Below are positions 3,748-32,267 of a stretch of 64,000 nucleotides of DNA, piece by piece. The DNA is taken from NCBI RefSeq assembly GCF_053078305.1, contig NZ_CP166879.1; one strand, written 5' to 3'. Each line of letters opens with the position of its first letter. Position 1 is the first letter of the stretch. The notes beneath the pieces are model-generated. The model saw only the letters and a list, made by a program, of their open reading frames with translations. It did not search any database and was not told where the DNA came from. The position numbers were made by a program, and so were the translations under genes.

Positions 3748-4811
3748 AACAGGTTTGCGTCCTCGGGAACGGGCAGTTAGGCCGTATGCTGCGTCAGGCA
3801 GGCGAACCGTTAGGCATTGCTGTCTGGCCAGTCGGGCTGGACGCTGAACCGGCGGCGGTGCCTTTTCAACAAAGCGTGATTACCGCTGAGATCGAACGCT
3901 GGCCGGAAACCGCATTAACCCGCGAGCTGGCGCGCCATCCGGCCTTTGTGAACCGCGATGTGTTCCCGATTATTGCTGACCGTCTGACTCAGAAGCAGCT
4001 TTTCGATAAGCTCCACCTGCCGACCGCACCGTGGCAGTTACTTGCCGATCGCAGCGAGTGGCCTGCGGTGTTTGATCGTTTAGGTGAGCTGGCGATTGTT
4101 AAGCGTCGCACTGGTGGCTATGACGGACGCGGTCAATGGCGTTTACGCGCCGATGAAACCGAGCAGTTACCGGCTGAATGCTACGGCGAATGTATTGTCG
4201 AGCAGGGCATAAACTTCTCTGGTGAAGTGTCGCTGGTTGGCGCGCGCGGCTTTGATGGCAGCACCGTGTTTTATCCGCTGACGCATAACCTGCATCAGGA
4301 CGGTATTTTGCGCACCAGCGTCGCTTTCCCGCAGGCCAATGCGCAGCAGCAAGCGCAAGCCGAAGAGATGCTTTCGGCGATTATGCAGGAGCTGGGCTAT
4401 GTAGGCGTGATGGCAATGGAGTGTTTTGTCACCCCGCAAGGTCTGTTGATCAACGAACTGGCACCGCGTGTGCATAACAGCGGTCACTGGACACAAAACG
4501 GTGCCAGCATCAGCCAGTTTGAGCTGCATCTGCGGGCGATTACCGATCTGCCGTTACCGCAACCGATAGTGAATAGTCCGTCGGTGATGATCAATCTGAT
4601 TGGTAGCGATGTGAATTATGACTGGCTGAAACTGCCGCTGGTGCATCTGCACTGGTACGACAAAGAAGTCCGTCCGGGCCGTAAAGTGGGGCATCTGAAT
4701 TTGACCGACAGCGACACATCGCGTCTGTCCGCGACGCTGGAAGCCTTAATCCCGCTGCTGCCGCCGGAGTATGCCAGCGGCGTGATGTGGGCACAGAGTA
4801 AGTTCAGTTAA
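3744..4811 (+). CDS. purK: N5-carboxyaminoimidazole ribonucleotide synthase
   Basis: 355 aa ATP-grasp protein; ATGA start/stop overlap with purE. Confidence 0.96.
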
Positions 4812-7934: not shown

Positions 7935-9602
7935 TTATTGCAAACGTTCTAATAAACGAGCCAGTTTTTTATTGCCGCCGGCGACTGGCGACCATTGGTA
8001 ATGCACAACCGGTTTGCTGGCGCTTTGTAGCTCCAGCGCAAAACTGCGTAATCCGATGTTAATCACGGCGACGTTTTCCAGTAATGACGGTGTGTGTTGC
8101 TGTGCGGCAGGCGAGAGCGGATGAATTAACGCTGCCGCCAGCAAGGTGGCTTCCGGTAGCGAACTCACGACCGCAATCCCCGCATCTTCCAGCGTGGCGA
8201 TTTGCTGCGAGCGGCATTGCGGGTCACGTTCGGTACCTGTCACCGTGGCAATGGCGTACAGCGGTTGGCTGTCTGAACGCGCGGCACAGGCTTTTTGCCA
8301 GGCGCTCACCAGCGAGGCGGCAGGATCGGCGGTCGCGCCGAAGCCAATCACGACATCAAGTAGCAATACGCGCACTGACAGTTTAGCGCCGAGATCGGCA
8401 ATTAACTGGTTGCGTAAGGTTGGGTCGATCATCGGATGGGGACGCCCGACGGTGTAGAAATCATCGCCAAGGTCAATAATCTGGTGACCATCGGCGTCGA
8501 GCATCATGCCGTGATGATGGGCATCATCGGCTTCCACGCCAAGGTGTCCGGCAAGTAATCCCGCCGCTTCGGCAGCCAGCGTACCGCCGGTATACAAACC
8601 GCAAATAAATCCGCTGCTGACAGGTGCTATTGCGTTACGTCGCGCCGTGACGCGTGAAAGCAGGCAAGCCAGGCGTGCGGCCTCATCCAGCGAGGAGGCA
8701 AACCAGACATTCTCGTCGCGGGCCACCGCCGGGGTATAACCTAAAAACAGCGCCACCGTCGGTTTGCCGGTTGCTTTCATGGCATTAACAATTTTCAGAC
8801 GCACCGCTTCGGCAGGTGGTTTTGAAACAAATGCCAGCACTTCGCTTTTCTCGTCTGCACTGAGCATTTCCAGCGCCGTCAGCGCACTGATGCCGCCCAC
8901 TTCACGGCTGAGGTCGCGGCCGCCAAGGCCAATCGCGTGAGTAATTCCCTCCCCTGCCAGCGCAATCTGCGAGCACAGCTCCTGAATCCCGGTACCGGAA
9001 GCGCCAATGACGCCAATATTGCCTTCCGGCATCACGTTAGCAAAAGCCAGCGGCGTGGCGGCAATCATCGACGTACCGCAGTCCGGCCCCATCACCAGCA
9101 AGCCTTTTTCTCGCGCGCGGGTTTTAAGTTGGATTTCATCTTCCAGCGTGACGTTATCGGAGAACATCATCACGTTGAGGTTGCGATCCAGCGCCTGATT
9201 CGCCAGCTCCGCCGCATACTCGCCAGCCACTGAAATCAGCGCCAGATTGGCATCGGGTAATTTCTGACAGGCACTGTCCCAGCGACGCACCTGCGTCAAG
9301 GACTGGCTGCTGCCTGCCCCCTGCGCCAGTTGTTTTAGCGCCTCTTCAAGCTGCTGCATAATCGCCTGCGCGATCCCCGCATCCGCCGCTTCGCTACGAA
9401 TTGCCACGCAAATATCGTTCGGCGTGGCGTTATTAAAATCGTCATGCCAGAAACCTGTGGTATCTAATAACGCTTTATTGGCGGGCGTACCCATCATTAC
9501 GGAAACATCATCAACATTTTCTGATTCGCTGAGTTTTCGTGAAATAATCATTAAACTGACCGAATCCTGAAAACACCCTTTTTTAATAAAGGCGTGGATC
9601 AT
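7935..9602 (-). CDS. fdrA: FdrA protein (succinyl-CoA synthetase alpha-like / CoA-binding)
   Basis: 555 aa ORF (MIHAFIKKGCFQDSVSLMIISRKL...) at the expected position. Confidence 0.9.
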   Translation of the reverse strand: MIHAFIKKGCFQDSVSLMIISRKLSESENVDDVSVMMGTPANKALLDTTGFWHDDFNNATPNDICVAIRSEAADAGIAQAIMQQLEEALKQLAQGAGSSQSLTQVRRWDSACQKLPDANLALISVAGEYAAELANQALDRNLNVMMFSDNVTLEDEIQLKTRAREKGLLVMGPDCGTSMIAATPLAFANVMPEGNIGVIGASGTGIQELCSQIALAGEGITHAIGLGGRDLSREVGGISALTALEMLSADEKSEVLAFVSKPPAEAVRLKIVNAMKATGKPTVALFLGYTPAVARDENVWFASSLDEAARLACLLSRVTARRNAIAPVSSGFICGLYTGGTLAAEAAGLLAGHLGVEADDAHHHGMMLDADGHQIIDLGDDFYTVGRPHPMIDPTLRNQLIADLGAKLSVRVLLLDVVIGFGATADPAASLVSAWQKACAARSDSQPLYAIATVTGTERDPQCRSQQIATLEDAGIAVVSSLPEATLLAAALIHPLSPAAQQHTPSLLENVAVINIGLRSFALELQSASKPVVHYQWSPVAGGNKKLARLLERLQ

Positions 9603-9840
9603 AACAACTCCTTAAAAATTGCACCCATGGCAATTGCACGAGCAGTGTTAATGTGGCGATTACGGTATCGATGACAACGGGTAAATAAGGTGATGAATAT
9701 CACACAGGGATTATTAACAAAAGAATTCAAATAACCGCCATGCTATTACGTGTTATTTTTTAATAAGCGTGGTTGTTTTAAAAACCAGGTTAAAAGCGAG
9801 CGGATTATCAAATAAATTCTAACTATATTTTTTTGCCTGT

Positions 9841-9858
9841 CTGGATCACATAATCCAG
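9841..9858. promoter_or_regulatory. Palindrome in fdrA-allD divergent promoter region (candidate regulator site)
   Basis: ctggat-cacata-atccag perfect 6-6-6 inverted repeat about 60 bp upstream of allD. Confidence 0.3.
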
Positions 9859-9918
9859 ATATTTTCCCTGTATGTTAATTGCAGTCATGCTTCACACCGT
9901 CGTTAAAAAGGAAGACAG

Positions 9919-10968
9919 ATGAAAATCAGTCGGGAAACACTCCACCAGCTAATTGAGAATAAACTCTGCCAGGCTGGGTTAAAACGTGAGCACGCTGCAA
10001 CCGTGGCTGAAGTATTGGTTTACGCCGATGCCAGAGGGATCCACTCTCATGGCGCGGTGCGCGTGGAATACTACGCGGAACGCATTTCAAAAGGCGGCAC
10101 CAACCGCGAACCGGAGTTTCGTCTTGAGGAAACCGGGCCGTGCTCGGCAATTTTACATGCCGACAATGCCGCCGGACAGGTCGCGGCGAAAATGGGTATG
10201 GAACATGCCATCAAAACCGCCCAGCAAAATGGCGTTGCGGTGGTCGGTATCAGCCGGATGGGTCACAGCGGCGCAATCTCTTATTTTGTGCAGCAGGCAG
10301 CCCGCGCCGGATTAATTGGCATTTCGATGTGTCAGTCCGATCCAATGGTGGTGCCGTTTGGCGGCGCGGAAATTTACTACGGTACTAACCCACTGGCCTT
10401 TGCCGCGCCGGGAGAAGGCGACGAGATCCTTACCTTTGATATGGCGACTACCGTACAGGCATGGGGAAAAGTGCTCGACGCCCGCTCGCGTAATATGTCT
10501 ATCCCGGATACCTGGGCGGTCGATAAAAACGGTGCACCAACAACCGATCCGTTCGCGGTACATGCTCTGCTCCCCGCAGCCGGGCCGAAAGGGTATGGCC
10601 TGATGATGATGATTGACGTCCTCTCAGGCGTCTTACTCGGCTTACCGTTCGGGCGACAGGTTAGTTCGATGTATGACGATTTACACGCCGGGCGTAATTT
10701 GGGGCAATTACATGTAGTTATTAACCCGAACTTTTTCTCCTCCAGCGAATTATTCCGTCAACATCTTAGCCAGACCATGCGCGAATTAAATGCCATTACC
10801 CCCGCGCCCGGTTTTAATCAGGTTTATTATCCCGGACAGGATCAGGATATTAAACAACGCCAAGCCGCCGTCGAAGGCATCGAAATTGTTGATGATATTT
10901 ACCAGTATTTAATTTCCGACGCGCTTTATAACACGTCATACGAAACGAAAAATCCCTTTGCGCAATAA
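9919..10968 (+). CDS. allD: Ureidoglycolate dehydrogenase
   Basis: 349 aa Ldh_2-family oxidoreductase; first gene of allDCE. Confidence 0.95.
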   Translation: MKISRETLHQLIENKLCQAGLKREHAATVAEVLVYADARGIHSHGAVRVEYYAERISKGGTNREPEFRLEETGPCSAILHADNAAGQVAAKMGMEHAIKTAQQNGVAVVGISRMGHSGAISYFVQQAARAGLIGISMCQSDPMVVPFGGAEIYYGTNPLAFAAPGEGDEILTFDMATTVQAWGKVLDARSRNMSIPDTWAVDKNGAPTTDPFAVHALLPAAGPKGYGLMMMIDVLSGVLLGLPFGRQVSSMYDDLHAGRNLGQLHVVINPNFFSSSELFRQHLSQTMRELNAITPAPGFNQVYYPGQDQDIKQRQAAVEGIEIVDDIYQYLISDALYNTSYETKNPFAQ

Positions 10969-10989
10969 TTATTGAGACAGGACTTTCTT

Positions 10990-12225
10990 ATGATTACACA
11001 TTTTCGTCAAGCCATAGAAGAAGCGCTGCCCTGGCTTTCCTCTTTTGGCGCTGACCCAGCGGGTGGGATGACCCGTTTACTTTATTCGCCGGAATGGCTG
11101 GAAACCCAGCAGCAATTTAAAAAAAGAATGGCCGCAAGTGGGCTGGAAACACGTTTCGATGAAGTGGGGAATTTATACGGTCGCCTGAGTGGCACCGAAT
11201 ATCCACAGGAAGTGATTCTGAGCGGTTCGCATATCGATACCGTGGTTAACGGCGGTAACCTCGACGGGCAATTCGGCGCGCTGGCGGCGTGGCTGGCAAT
11301 TGACTGGCTGAAAACTCAATACGGCGCACCGCTGCGTACGGTTGAAGTGGTGGCGATGGCGGAAGAAGAAGGCAGCCGCTTCCCGTATGTTTTCTGGGGC
11401 AGTAAAAATATCTTTGGGCTGGCGAATCCTGACGACGTGCGGAATATCTGTGATGCCAAAGGAAATAGTTTTGTCGATGCGATGAAGGCTTGCGGATTTA
11501 CTCTGCCGGACGCCCCGCTAACTCCGCGTCAGGATATTAAAGCCTTTGTCGAACTGCATATCGAACAGGGCTGTGTTCTGGAAAGTAATGGGCAATCAAT
11601 TGGCGTGGTGAATGCAATTGTCGGGCAACGTCGCTATACGGTGACGCTGAACGGCGAATCAAACCATGCAGGCACCACGCCGATGGGTTATCGTCGTGAT
11701 ACGGTTTACGCTTTCAGTCGCATTTGCCATCAGTCGATCGAAAAAGCGAAAAAGATGGGTGATCCGCTGGTTCTGACCTTTGGGAAAGTAGAGCCGCGCC
11801 CGAATACGGTGAATGTGGTGCCGGGTAAAACCACGTTCACCATTGATTGTCGTCATACCGACGCCGCCGTGCTGCGTGATTTCACCCAACAGTTAGAAAA
11901 CGACATGCGGGCGATTTGCGATGAAATGGACATTGGTATTGATATCGATTTATGGATGGACGAAGAACCCGTGCCGATGAATAAGGACCTGGTCGCCACC
12001 CTGACAGAATTGTGTGAAAGTGAAAAACTGAATTACCGGGTGATGCACAGTGGTGCCGGGCACGACGCGCAAATTTTCGCGCCTCGCGTACCAACCTGCA
12101 TGATTTTTATCCCCAGCATCAACGGGATCAGCCATAACCCGGCGGAACGCACCAATATTACCGACCTTGCCGAAGGGGTCAAAACGTTGGCACTCATGCT
12201 TTATCAACTTGCCTGGCAGAAATAA
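10990..12225 (+). CDS. allC: Allantoate amidohydrolase
   Basis: 411 aa M20-peptidase-family hydrolase from ATG at 10990 (MITHFRQAIEEALP...). Confidence 0.93.
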   Translation: MITHFRQAIEEALPWLSSFGADPAGGMTRLLYSPEWLETQQQFKKRMAASGLETRFDEVGNLYGRLSGTEYPQEVILSGSHIDTVVNGGNLDGQFGALAAWLAIDWLKTQYGAPLRTVEVVAMAEEEGSRFPYVFWGSKNIFGLANPDDVRNICDAKGNSFVDAMKACGFTLPDAPLTPRQDIKAFVELHIEQGCVLESNGQSIGVVNAIVGQRRYTVTLNGESNHAGTTPMGYRRDTVYAFSRICHQSIEKAKKMGDPLVLTFGKVEPRPNTVNVVPGKTTFTIDCRHTDAAVLRDFTQQLENDMRAICDEMDIGIDIDLWMDEEPVPMNKDLVATLTELCESEKLNYRVMHSGAGHDAQIFAPRVPTCMIFIPSINGISHNPAERTNITDLAEGVKTLALMLYQLAWQK

Positions 12226-25040: not shown

Positions 25041-26150
<1,110 letters not shown>

Positions 26151-26265
26151 TGAGGGACGTATTTGTATTAGTCGCGACTTGATCTGACACATGGCCTTGA
26201 AAGGTTGAGAGTTACCGGTTTTGATATGAGTGTCGAATCCTTATCCAAAACAAGAGGTAACTCTC

Positions 26266-26637
26266 ATGCTTCATACTGCCAATCCCGTCATCAAACACAA
26301 AGCCGGTTTGCTCAATCTGGCTGAAGAACTCAGCAACGTATCAAAAGCCTGTAAAATCATGGGCGTTTCGCGTGATACGTTTTATCGTTACCGCGAACTG
26401 GTCGCTGAAGGCGGTGTGGATGCGCAGATTAATCGTAGTCGCCGCGCTCCTAACCTTAAGAACCGTACCGATGAGGCAACTGAACAGGCTGTTGTTGATT
26501 ACGCCGTCGCTTTCCCGACACATGGTCAGCACCGGGCCAGCAACGAACTGCGTAAACAGGGGGTTTTTATCTCCGACAGTGGTGTCCGTTCTGTCTGGTT
26601 ACTCCATAACCTTGAGAATCTCAAAAGACGATACTGA
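26266..26637 (+). mobile_element. Truncated transposase (N-terminal HTH fragment, integrase-core IS type), likely pseudogene
   Basis: 124 aa from ATG at 26266 with SD aagagg; HTH-like segment (MGVSRDTFYRYRELV) but no catalytic DDE domain. Confidence 0.5.
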
Positions 26638-26669
26638 ACAAATTTTATCAGGTGACGTTCCGTAAAAAG

Positions 26670-26786
26670 TTGTATGGAGTTCTCGATGCAGTCGGCGCGA
26701 CTATCAGTACCCCCGCTGAACCCTGGACTATCGGGCCGCCGTACTGGGGCATGTCACCCTGGCGTGCCGCTGGTTTTCCGCTAATG
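26670..26786 (-). pseudogene. Vestigial rhs 5' (PAAR N-terminal) remnant with mutated start codon
   Basis: About 120 bp with clear nucleotide similarity to the 5' end of the main rhs gene (31740-31838); encodes [25 protein letters not shown], with the start ATG changed to ATT, then stops after about 45 codons. Confidence 0.55.
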
Positions 26787-27151
26787 GTTTATTTCCTCTT
26801 TCTTTCCCGGCAAGAATTTATTTTAATCCGGAAGGATTATTTATTTTCAGATAGGGACTCACATTAAACACGTAACATTTTAATTAATGCATGGCTGAAT
26901 ATGTATTACACAATGTCAGATATCGTAAAAGACCAGTGCAATTCTATGTAAACTCTCTGACTGTTCATTTTATTTGTTGTTTCAGGGTCGGAACTCACCC
27001 TCAATAAACAACTGAATACGAGTAGATATTCATCGTCTGAGCTATATGGCTTTACACAATAGTCGACATGTCTTTTCTCAGTCAGGAATTTTACTTTTCC
27101 TCACTACGAAGTTGACGACTTCGATATGGGATAGACTCTTAATTCAAGCAA

Positions 27152-27643
27152 TTACTCTGCACAAGCATCAGGCAATCCAGCTCCAATATTTGTTATAAAA
27201 TAATGCGTAACATTAATTTCACCAACAAAAAAAAGATTTACGCTATCCCCTTGCCCTGGTATTTTACCATATTTACACCACACTTTTTTTGTATCTGGAT
27301 CATTCTTTGATACGATTTTCGCCACTTGTTCCCTGGCCCTCACCGTCAATGTTTTCTTAAACCTCCCCCCATCATCGATTGTTAGGGAAAAATAAGAAAA
27401 AAAATAATCATCTTCTACATTTGTGGATATTGATATATCCACCGCTACGTGCGGAAAAAAATCTGGGAGCCATGTAAAAACTCCATCATTTTCTGGTATT
27501 GCCATATAGTTTATGTAATGCTTACTTACAAGAGATTCATCTTTGTGTAAATAAAGATAAGTAGTCACGCATAAAAAAACAACGATTATAATAGCAAAAA
27601 TAAATATTACCATCTTTGAGATGTTACTTGAGATAGCCAGCAT
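27152..27643 (-). CDS. Putative Rhs immunity protein (membrane-anchored)
   Basis: 163 aa ORF whose ATG overlaps the last codons of rhs; N-terminal TM helix ([22 protein letters not shown]); alternative start at 27613. Confidence 0.6.
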
Positions 27644-30600
27644 CTTGTAAAGCCTTTATCGTTTTTTTATGCTCTGGATTAATATAATCAATACATCTAT
27701 TTGAGCAATCTTGTGTTAATGGACATGTCAACCCATGTTCATTTACAGCCAAGTCTTTTTTATTATCTTCAATCATCTCAGAATGGGATAACTTTACTTT
27801 TCTGCCGTACATACCGAACATATTTAACCCGTAATCTCTAATCTCTTTTTCATAACCCAGCCCTTTCGCCGATCGGCTAACACCAGCGTCATTTAATTTA
27901 GACACTCGACAAAATGCCATACAATGGAAAAATTGATCAGTCCCACCTAAATTTAATCTCTTCATATCATCATAAGTATCAGATAATATATCCCATGCTC
28001 TTTGATGGTTTAGTTGTTCTTTTTTTCGCATTAACGCTACATCTGCAGGACTTAACCCTAATGGATCAATACCATTCACCGGATTCAGCGGATACGCATA
28101 CAGACTCCATCCCCCCGCCAGCCCAATCGGGTCCTGAGTAATATATCGTCCCAGCAACGGATTGTAGTACCGGTTCCGGTTATAATACAGCCCCGACTCC
28201 TCATCATACTGCTGCCCCGGCAGCCGGTACGGCTGGTGCAGGTGATGCGGGTTCTCCTCATTCAGCTGGTTGCCCCATTCATCATACTCCCCGCTCCACG
28301 CCGTATTGCCGTCTTCGCTGATGAGCGCCAGCGGCAGGCCCCGGTGGTCGCAGTGGTAAAGATGAACTTTTCTCGCCGGTGTGTATTCCGGCTCCACCTG
28401 TCTGGCCAGTTGCTCCACCGTCAGCCCGCACTGCGCAAGCCACGCCCGGCTTTCACTGCTCACGCGGTCTGCCCGGATTTCCCCCTCCAGCCTGTCCAGC
28501 AGCCCCACCAGTTCAGCCGGGAACACCACACCGTGGCCGTCTTCGCTCCCTTCCTGCTGCAGCTTCTCCGCCAGGCTGCGGCACTGCGCTTTCTCCCGTT
28601 CACCGTTGTCTGTTTCGATGCGGATGAGCGGCGCGAAGCTCCCCGGCTGGTATACCGTCTGGATACGCGTGGTGTCGGTCTGTACCGTCGTCAGCCGGTC
28701 GCCGTCCCATCCGTACCACGTCACCTCCGGTTTACGCGACAGCGACATCCATCCCGTCAGGTCACGCCCGCGACGCCACACCCGTTTTCCCGTCCGGCGG
28801 CCCAGCGGGTCGTAGAGGTAGCGGCTCTCGACCAGTGGCTCCTCATGCTGTATCCGCGTGTAAAACACCAGCCGGTGCTGGCTGTCGTAGTGGTAGTGGT
28901 GGGTCCGCTCGTCGTCCGTCCGTATCACACCCGTCGGGATGCGGTCCGTCTTCTCCGTCAGCCTGCCGTATTCATCGTAACGGTACAGGTAATGCGCGTC
29001 TTTGGTGATGCGGTTATCCGGCCACGCCGTGAGCGTGCTGTCCGGGTGCAGCTCCGGGTCCGGCAGGCGGTTGCCCGCCGGGTCGGTCGCATACGGGATG
29101 CGGATGTCCAGGTCCGGTGCGAGGGTGCGCACGCTCTCCAGCCTGCCCGTGGCGCTGTAGCCGTATTCCCGCGTCTGCCGGGGGGCGCTGATGCGCACCA
29201 GGTCGCCGTTGTCATTCCACCCGTAGTCACGGTCATATACCAGGCTGTTCAGGTGCTGGCTCTGTAACTGGCCTGCGGGGGTGTATGTGCTGGTCAGTTC
29301 GTATGCGGCATTACTGCCTGCCATGCTGCCGAAGCTGCGCACCGTCTCACGGTGCAGCCTGTCCCGCGTATACTCGACCAGCGGCGTCCCGCCCAGCTTC
29401 ATTCCCGCCAGGTAACCGCTGCCATACGTCAGCCACTCCACCGGCGGCAGGCTGTCCGGCGTGACGCGGTTTGCCAGCCCCTGTTCGTTGTATGCGTGTT
29501 TCGTCTCATGCTGCCACAGCAGTTCCCCCGTCTCCGGGTTCTCCACCGTCTGGCGTTCGCCGGTCAGGCGGCCCTTATCGTCGTAGCCGTAGTGGGCAGC
29601 GACACGGTGGCCTTCACTGAGATGGCTGATGTCTGTCAGCCAGCCGTGGCCGTCATACTGCCACTGCTCTGCCGGTTCACCGTTTACCGTGCGGTGAGTG
29701 ATACGGTCCGATTCATCGTAGTACCAGAGGATGACAAGTCCCTCATCCTCACTCTGTGTGAGTTTTCCGGTCAGGTCATAATGATAACGTTGCGTCCGCC
29801 CGTCAAAGCCGCCCTGCTGTACCAGCCGGTCCAGCGCATCGTAACTGAAGACGCTGTGGCTGCCGTTCTCGTTGGTCAGGCTGATGACACGTCCGGCAGC
29901 ATCGTACTCCATACTGCGCGTCAGCCCGCCCTGCGTGGTGCTGACCGCCTTTCCCCACGCATCGTACTGTGTCTCGCTCCGGTTGCCGTCCGGGGTGATA
30001 ACGGCAGTCAGGTCGCCTGCGGCGTTGTATTCATACCGCGTTTCACGGCCCTGTGCGTCTTTCACCGAGGTTAACCGGCCACGGTTGTCATAGCGGCGGT
30101 AAAGGCTGATGCCTTCCTCGCGGTGGACCGCCGTCATCTGGCCGAAGCGGTCGTATTCATAACGGGTCTGGTAGCCCGAGCAGTCGGTGAACGCCAGCAA
30201 CTGACCGTAGCGGCTCCACGTCATCTGCCGGGTGCTGCCCGTCGCATCTGTTGTTGTGGCCGGTAATTCACTGTGCGCATCATCATAGCGGTAGCGTACT
30301 GTCTCCCCGCTGCGCGATGTCTCCGTTACCAGCCTGTCCAGTTCATCATATGCCCGGCGGCTCTCCAGCCCGTCCGGGGACACCACCGCCGTCAGCTGGT
30401 TCCCGTCGTTATAGTAAAATTTCGTCTCCCGCCCGTCCGGTGTGGTGATGTCCGTGATGTCGCCTGACACCACATTCAGACCGTACTCTGTCCGCCGTCC
30501 CGCCGCGTCCGTCTGCGCCGTGAGCCTTCCTGCCGCGTCATACCCGCTGTGCGTGATGCTGCCGTCCGCCTGTTCCTTCATCACCACCCGTTTCAGCCCG

Positions 30601-31838
30601 GCCTCGCCTTCTGTATGCAGCACCTCACGCCGGTTCAGGCTGTCTGTGACGGTGATGCGGTCCTGCTCATACTGGTAGCAGTAACTCAGGCCTGCCGGGT
30701 TTAGTTGCTCCACCACCCGCCCCGCATCGTCGTAGCGGTAGCGCATCTCCGGCCTTCCCGCGTAACGGTGCGCCACCATCCGCCCGGGGTGCTGCGCGTC
30801 ATATGTGAAAGCGCGCACCTGCGTATTGCTGCGGTCATATACCGCCAGCAGTTCACCGGCCTCCGTATACGTGTACCGCGCCAGTGGCGCACCGGGCAGA
30901 TTCTCCGGGTATGCCGGGTCGTGCATCAGCCACACCGCCGAAAGGCGGATACCCCTGTCGGGGCCGTATTCGGTACCGGGCAGTGTGTCGGGGAACGCTG
31001 AGTCTGAAAGAGGGCGGGGGGTGTCAGGGGAAGATAAGGAAGCGGTGTGCTGTTTACGGGCCTCTTCCGCCCGCTGCGCCTGCGTGGTCAGCACCAGACG
31101 GAACTCCCGCCCGGCACCGTCCGTCACGCCGGTGATGTCCCCGGCCAGGTCGCCTGCGGCCTCACGCCGGTACACCAGCGTCCGCCCGAAGCGGTCCGCC
31201 ATCCCGGTAAGCACCCGGTACGGCGGCAGCGGCGCTGGCAGTACGTCCTCAGCACCCGGCACCCGCTCAGACCACCCCAGTATCCACCACGGCCCCTGTG
31301 CGCTGTTGGTCGCCAGGTAAAGATGCGGGCTTAACCGGATATCCGGCGGCAGCGACGCCCACAGCCGTGCCAGCGTATGGCCGTCCGGCTGTGCTGCCTT
31401 ACCACCGCGCACCAGCCACAGGGACTCGCTGCGGCTGTACACCGCCTCACCCGGCAGCAGCGGCTCAAAGTGAATGCTCCGTCCGCCGTCGTTGTCGTTG
31501 AGTACCAGTGCATCATCGCGTAGCTGTAAGCGGATATCAGAAGGCGCTTTCCAGCCGGGGCCAAAAATCCCCACCGGTGCAGGCGTCTTCGTCCGGTAGC
31601 TGCTGTAGGTGCGGGAGAGAATGAACGGCAGCGGGCCGGGCAGCGCAAGGTCCGTCTCGCCGGGCAGCACCTTCGCCCCCAGCAGCGGATTTACCGGGTT
31701 GCCCGAAGTCATCCCGCCCGGACACACCGAGCACGACACGCCAGTTGGCGCGCCAATTCTTACACCTGCCGAACCCTGGACAATGGGACCGCCATACTGA
31801 GTCATATCTCCCTGACGCGCCGCTGGTTTTCCGCTCAT
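27624..31838 (-). CDS. rhsD: Rhs-family polymorphic toxin (PAAR N-terminus, YD-repeat shell, C-terminal toxin)
   Basis: 1404 aa with PAAR-like N-terminus ([25 protein letters not shown]), many YD/RHS repeats, and DPxGL boundary ([10 protein letters not shown]) before a roughly 150 aa C-terminal tip. Gene symbol is by synteny only; the tip may differ from K-12. Confidence 0.92.
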
Positions 31839-32267
31839 ATAAAGTGCCCTTTTAGTTATTGTTCATATCCCTGTGTTAGCAACAAAAAAAAATAAAATGA
31901 CACACAAGACCAACTAATGTATTTATATATTTTTCACATAAACTTATTTGTTCTCAATCAACAACAACTGTTATTACAGGTCACTTTCAATATTTTATTA
32001 AACTAAAATTTTTAGCACAGATGAATTCATCATCAACAAATTCACTATATGGATAATATCCATTCAACGCATATGATTTATGATTTTATTAGTCTGAGTT
32101 ATTTTTGTAGGGCTATATTTAAATTATTAAACTCCACCGATTCAGATTAATATCAGCAATAGAAAGATAGGAAATCACCAATTCAATAACATCATCAATG
32201 AAACATATTGTAGAATTAATTTAAACAAGGCGTTCCATTCAACCAGAACGCCCCTTATTTACTCTCA

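Follow-up and report, generated by a model that had tools for sequence, protein, structure and literature searches.

A probable deletion scar of an rhs gene and an IS481-family element, the same as K-12 ylbI and ylbG, at the selU-proximal edge of the Escherichia coli RhsD island

In Escherichia coli K-12 MG1655, two small features are annotated between ybbD and selU, the pseudogene ylbI (96 bp) and ylbG (372 bp), the latter listed as a “putative DNA-binding transcriptional regulator”. In O157:H7 and other strains the equivalents of both are labelled incomplete pseudogenes by PGAP. The ORF carries the name ylbG in both K-12 and O157, and its annotated product is an HTH protein or a partial transposase. 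The nearest described systems are of two kinds. Orphan rhs tips, which arise by C-terminal displacement, comprise a 3′ core fragment, a toxin tip and an immunity gene, and can be reused by recombination (Jackson et al. 2009, PMC2935791). IS481-family copies, found in E. coli, E. albertii, Salmonella, Serratia and Klebsiella plasmids, possess a left inverted repeat, a leader and a helix-turn-helix (HTH) domain, and full-length copies also have a DDE domain and a right inverted repeat (IRR).

Here we describe the corresponding locus in a stretch of 64,000 nucleotides, referred to as the window (Table 1). A first-pass annotation of this DNA had proposed a comparison with the ylbH/ybbD/ylbI region of K-12, which we carried out, and the region proved to be exactly ylbI (b4632) plus ylbG (b0502). 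The two sequences are 99.6% identical over 26100–27200 and lie in the same place, with the order ybbD, spacer, ylbI, ylbG, selU retained, features of 96 and 372 nt, and ATT at the start of ylbI. The locus is thus already known and catalogued as pseudogene debris of E. coli. We consider it very probable that the feature is a non-functional deletion scar forming the selU-proximal edge of the RhsD island, and that it is the same as ylbI and ylbG of K-12.

K-12 differs from the window upstream of the scar, where an extra RhsD tip and ybbC have been inserted, displacing ylbH and ybbD. K-12 positions 8952–11200 (locus L001) are collinear with window positions 28332–26083 at 97% identity, and the main rhs gene of the window is 95% identical to K-12 rhsD and then 97% identical to ylbH. 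Furthermore, the YbbD-family open reading frame (ORF) is collinear with K-12 ybbD, which is a pseudogene in that strain, whereas in the window it is intact. At window positions 27152–28332 the main rhs gene retains its ylbH-type tip and is followed by an undisrupted YbbD-family ORF, hence these positions show the arrangement before the K-12 tip displacement.

Like the orphan rhs tips, ylbI is an rhs fragment in a GC-poor region downstream of a full-length rhs/immunity pair. It differs in being a 5′ fragment, encoding a PAAR-like N-terminus without core, tip or immunity gene. No immunity-like ORF follows it, the only sequences beyond being IS481 DNA and selU, hence it is not an orphan rhs-CT/immunity module. 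The longest exact match between ylbI and the main rhs gene is 17 nt, and as this is too short and the sequence too diverged, ylbI seems unlikely to act as a recombination substrate.

Table 1. Coordinates of the features of the RhsD island and its selU-proximal scar in the window.
Feature	Positions	Strand	Basis
Rhs island, 6.1 kb, selU (mnmH) stop to ybbP stop	26158–32261		Comparison with the empty site and other occupants
IS481-family relic, ~527 of ~1199 bp	26164–26689/90	plus	Alignment to full-length copies L004 and L005
ylbG ORF, 123 aa, IS481 transposase HTH N-terminal domain	26266–26637	plus	Pfam, NCBIfam
ylbI read-through tail, ASRTPYNFLRNVT then TGA at 26650–26648	26648–26689	minus	Translation; antisense of IS481-derived DNA, no rhs
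ylbI, rhs 5′ fragment, 32 codons, PAAR-like N-terminus	26690–26785	minus	Alignment to the 5′ end of main rhs
AT-rich spacer (35% GC), YbbD-family gene to ylbI	26786–27151	minus	Sequence comparison
YbbD-family ORF, intact, 163 aa, presumed immunity partner of main rhs	27152–27643	minus	NCBIfam PRK14710.1-3, E = 6e-113
Main rhs, 1404 aa, RhsD-type core and ylbH-type C-terminal tip	27624–31838	minus	Pfam RHS_repeat, DUF6531, RHS

The first-pass annotation had reported a degenerate rhs 5′ remnant in which the start codon ATG had become ATT, and this remnant is real. Aligned with the first 96 nt of the main rhs gene (31838–31743), ylbI shows no gaps and is identical at 76 of 96 nucleotides (79%) and 28 of 32 amino acids. 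Read on the minus strand from 26785 to 26690, it reads ATT AGC GGA AAA CCA GCG GCA CGC CAG GGT GAC ATG CCC CAG TAC GGC GGC CCG ATA GTC CAG GGT TCA GCG GGG GTA CTG ATA GTC GCG CCG ACT. The encoded residues correspond to the PAAR-like leader found at Rhs N-termini, with 28 of 32 also identical to K-12 RhsD and 27 of 32 to RhsA, RhsB and RhsC, and Pfam returned a PAAR_motif hit (E = 6e-5) under the gathering score. Beyond codon 32 the homology ends, and the YD/RHS-repeat core, the hyperconserved PxxxxDPxGL region and the variable C-terminal toxin tip of Rhs proteins are all absent from ylbI, which is a gene fragment and no functional member of the family.

A short stretch of 96 nt invites the question of whether its similarity is due to chance or low complexity, with no true homologue behind it, and shortness is all that could be put forward for such an explanation. 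The local alignment score of ylbI against main rhs is 57, compared with 9.5 ± 1.2 for 500 dinucleotide shuffles (z ~40), and BLAST gives E-values of ~1e-17 to 1e-18. The stretch contains 45 distinct trinucleotides, its exact match to main rhs includes the 17-nt run noted above, and its GC content of 63.5% is like that of an rhs core, against 35% in the adjoining spacer. The same 32 residues also open rhsA–D. The low-complexity objection that accompanied the first-pass annotation therefore fails, and we reject chance resemblance outright.

The remnant is shorter than first described. Instead of about 120 bp and some 40 codons, rhs homology covers 96–97 nt (32 codons) and ends at 26690, and positions 26639–26689 derive from IS481 and not from rhs. 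Indeed, 26622–26690 is 81–82% identical to the IS481 copies L004 (3930–3997) and L005. On the 5′ side, similarity to the leaders of other rhs genes extends only ~20 nt upstream of the ATT. This triplet occupies 26785–26783 (minus strand), not the edge at 26786 given previously.

Early termination of the reading frame was correctly noted: after the rhs part it runs through 13 unrelated codons to the TGA, making 45 codons in all, and with ATT at its start ylbI offers neither a usable start codon nor the open frame of an Rhs gene. None of 2,796 carrier genomes perfectly matches a version of the start region with ATG, so that loss of the start codon appears to be fixed among carriers.

Although the homology to the main rhs gene some 5 kb away was correctly recognised, ylbI appears from its pattern of divergence to be what is left of a distinct rhs lineage that was once functional, and no decayed copy of its neighbour. 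Over the 96 nt it is 79% identical to the main rhs gene of the window, 78% to K-12 rhsD and 74–77% to rhsA, rhsB and rhsC, i.e. 74–79% to rhsA–D as a whole, whereas the rhsD and rhsA/B/C subfamilies show 81–85% identity over the same positions. The 20 differences between ylbI and rhsD are distributed 2/2/16 over codon positions 1/2/3, and this preponderance of third-position changes indicates that ylbI diverged while it was protein-coding (chi-square ~19.6, p ~5e-5 against the even spread of neutral decay, our own calculation). Four replacements (M1I, T13P, R27L and G29V) affect positions at which the other five sequences all agree, which makes them candidates for change after inactivation.

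These figures also bear on whether ylbI could be a recent partial duplication of the 5′ end of main rhs (31743–31838) followed by neutral decay. The two sequences share their orientation and the same island, ~5 kb apart, and have 28 of 32 amino acids in common, all as a duplication would have it. Their nucleotide identity is only 79%, however, with 16 of 20 differences at third positions, and sequence more than ~20 nt upstream of the start is unrelated. Furthermore, carrier genomes are at least 99% identical to one another, which leaves too little time for 21% neutral divergence. Contradicted by this divergence pattern, a recent duplication is scarcely credible.

Relatives of the separate lineage to which we assign ylbI are remote. 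Its closest other match in a distant BLAST search of 5,426 E. coli genomes was ~82% identical or lower. A search of 100,044 species-representative genomes with a 29-mer covering leader and start, in which the ATT/ATG position was left free, retrieved only a mis-binned E. coli contig. This contig (CASFSC010000074.1, L011), 4 kb long and part of the metagenome-assembled genome of an “uncultured Alistipes sp.”, is 97.5% identical to and collinear with window positions 25517–28332, and is an E. coli contig wrongly placed in a Bacteroidota genome.

The other half of the scar is a relic of an IS481-family element. A truncated transposase N-terminal fragment had been reported as adjoining the rhs remnant, and the ylbG ORF is just that, directly fused to the rhs fragment. 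Pfam identified HTH_29 (E = 1.8e-20) and HTH_32 in the ORF, and NCBIfam transpos_IS481 (NF033577) matched with E = 2e-25 over profile positions 2–112 of 284. The protein being partial, its score of 89.9 bits stays below the cutoff of 224. At the nucleotide level the ylbG region is 94% identical to annotated IS481-family transposase genes, and across the left inverted repeat, leader and HTH domain the relic is 94–96% identical to the copies in E. coli, E. albertii, Salmonella, Serratia and Klebsiella plasmids.

For its extent the relic was compared with near-full-length copies on a chromosome (L004), on a plasmid (L005) and on many Enterobacteriaceae plasmids. The complete element measures ~1199 bp, with inverted repeats at L004 3001–3026 and 4174–4199. 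Window positions 26164–26630 correspond to L004 3001–3466 and begin exactly at the left inverted repeat (TGTATTAG...), which is authentic (TGTATTAGTCGCGACTTGATCTGACA, 26164–26189), and 26622–26690 corresponds to L004 3930–3997. Relative to L004 and L005, ~463 bp are hence missing internally, at ~26622–26630, flanked by short repeats (CAAAA(A/G)ACG..CTGAA-type microhomology), and ~202 bp including IRR are missing from the right end. In agreement, the 527-nt relic used as a query is spread across 999 bp of a plasmid IS481 copy (H167).

The internal loss removed the DDE region and created the stop codon of ylbG. Only HTH domains, and no DDE (rve) domain, were found in ylbG by the Pfam search. Of the features of an IS481 element, the relic therefore has the N-terminal HTH and the left inverted repeat (IRL) and is without the DDE domain and the second inverted repeat. 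With neither DDE domain nor IRR, it cannot transpose.

An Rfam scan of 26000–27700 returned nothing besides a sub-threshold match to psRNA2 (RF02349) at 26092–26263 on the minus strand (31 bits against a gathering score of 65, E ~6e-6). It falls opposite the left inverted repeat and leader of IS481, on the antisense strand, has no bearing on ylbI, and suggests that the psRNA2 family may itself derive from IS481-type ends.

The junction between rhs and IS481 DNA lies at 26689/26690, where IS homology extends to 26690 and rhs homology sets in at 26689, so that the two overlap by a CA dinucleotide only. Its equivalent in the full-length element is L004 position 3997, within the transposase gene and ~202 bp short of the right inverted repeat, and the rhs fragment and the transposase gene meet there in convergent orientation. 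Breakpoints such as this one, like the homologies, the identity with K-12 and the distribution among genomes, are direct observations. As the junction is internal to the transposase gene and coincides with no IS terminus, it would have been made by deletion and not by simple insertion of the element, and the rhs/IS fusion, judged by its breakpoints, appears to carry the signature of illegitimate deletion and none of transposition.

The first-pass annotation had left the choice between the scar of an older rhs rearrangement and that of an IS insertion. The scar is confirmed, and simple insertional disruption, in which codon 32 of an rhs gene was the target of a transposing IS481-family element, is highly improbable. 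It would account for the direct contact of the rhs fragment with IS481-derived DNA, and other rhs 5′ stubs do adjoin IS elements, for example the one beside ISEc1 downstream of vgrG in strain 142. No inverted repeat is present at the junction, however, the right one lying at 4174–4199 of the full-length copy, and the other end of the element (IRL, 26164) faces selU, away from any remainder of an rhs gene. Breakpoint mapping thus contradicts simple insertion.

The stub in strain 142 (L003 8335–8369) lies between vgrG and ISEc1, consists of ~18 nt of leader and 17 nt of coding sequence, and is 83% identical to window positions 26769–26803.

Formation of the scar by deletion would have begun with two neighbours at this end of the island. 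One, lying 3′ of today's rhs/ybbD pair, would have been a second rhs gene, belonging to none of the lineages rhsA–E, with its start at 26785 and its reading direction towards selU. The other, at the island edge, would have been an IS481-family element whose left end was 6 nt away from the selU-side boundary. An illegitimate deletion could then have fused rhs codon 32 to the convergent transposase gene near its codon 298, taking with it the remainder of the second rhs gene and the right end of the element. A second deletion, of ~463 bp within the element and between CTGAA-type short repeats, would have eliminated most of the catalytic domain, leaving the 123-aa, HTH-only ylbG. That the second rhs gene was once complete, and in what order these events took place, is what we infer from the remains, as no intact parent rhs gene and no undeleted intermediate was found among 5,426 E. 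coli genomes. The rhs/IS fusion may also predate the arrival of the island and have taken place in a donor.

The IS481 relic and ylbI together form the selU-proximal edge of the island, with the left end of the element 6 nt inside the boundary. Elsewhere, the selU–ybbP intergenic site is empty or differently occupied (loci L008, L009 and L010 were compared): Nissle 1917 has only 140 bp of REP-like sequence, ACN002 a dinQ-like type I toxin, and strain S3 an extended Hcp (TssD) effector with three DUF2931 genes. The site is a multi-occupancy hotspot.

A megablast search with 26140–27160 returned matches of at least 99% identity in ~2,800 records, and the scar is carried by ~2,800 of 5,426 complete E. 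coli genomes, about half, including K-12, the B strain ATCC 11303, and O157, O111, O121 and O45 strains. Among the eroded loci compared (L007, L016 and L017), VE-T2 and EC21 have IS3 in place of everything from ~26610 to ybbD, and in MB30 the main rhs gene has been removed by IS1 while ylbG, ylbI and part of the spacer remain, the erosion being placed at ~26610 and ~26951 in the window.

Within the spacer, a piece of 183 bp (26834–27016) is 86% identical to DNA of the RhsE/vgrG locus in strain 142 (L003 6001–6185), where the copy stops abruptly beside ISEc1 (H-repeat) and bears no annotation. A second copy of the piece is present in ~80 genomes. We considered the spacer as a YbbD/YdcD-type immunity module shared with RhsE, and rejected this since the adjacent proteins are unrelated, K-12 RhsE gives no match and only the 183 bp are shared.

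AT-rich DNA of the H-NS type is a frequent source of ChIP and SELEX signal. Two published signals fall on this locus. SELEX with RpoD holoenzyme identified a “constitutive promoter”, TCGTCA-19-TAAAAT, in the ybbD–ylbI spacer (PMC3946193), which we locate at 27118–27088 on the minus strand, just 3′ of the YbbD-family stop and pointing to ylbI, and an FNR ChIP-chip peak without an FNR site was assigned to ylbI (PMC1802558). Each can be explained by promiscuous binding to DNA rich in AT, or by a promoter left over from the lost gene, and neither shows function. Our own sigma-70 scan of 26100–27250, with a spacer range of 16–18 nt that leaves the published promoter (19 nt) outside, found no promoter-like sites, and the single terminator-like hairpin is at chance level. 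The published signals leave room for some transcription, which may run through the relic.

These signals could be taken as a hint of co-option, in which the spacer promoter drives a transcript through ylbI, either antisense to ylbG or encoding a 34-aa ORF (26648–26752), or in which YlbG, reduced to its HTH, binds DNA as a regulator or inhibits transposition. Besides the SELEX site and the FNR peak, the uninterrupted 123-aa HTH ORF of ylbG, with its K-12 annotation as a putative regulator, can be cited in favour. Against it, about half of E. coli are without the locus, elsewhere it has been deleted by IS3 or IS1, and ylbG is flagged as an incomplete pseudogene by PGAP in other strains. The scan for promoters and terminators lends co-option no support, and signals of the ChIP and SELEX kind are common on such AT-rich DNA. 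Moreover, the ybbD–ylbG interval serves as a K-12 landing pad for 7-kb constructs and reporter libraries, with viable integrants (PMC2847246; bioRxiv 10.1101/2020.01.04.894907). We regard co-option as very unlikely, also when put as a relic that is not fully inert, in which the spacer keeps the promoter of the lost rhs gene or YlbG is a domesticated fragment of the IS481 transposase.

The scar is almost certainly non-functional, as ylbI has lost its start codon and breaks off at codon 32, half of the species does without the locus, secondary deletions are tolerated and the site is used as a landing pad. By itself it matters little. In annotation, ylbI and ylbG are to be treated as pseudogene debris, and the scar supports continued use of the ybbD–ylbG interval as a neutral integration site. 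It is also a tidy example of the decay of an Rhs island by illegitimate deletions at microhomologies of 2–9 nt. Finally, ylbI preserves 96 nt of an rhs lineage for which the 5,426 complete E. coli genomes yielded no close relative, and is in this respect a minor fossil of how toxin genes have come and gone at the selU–ybbP hotspot.
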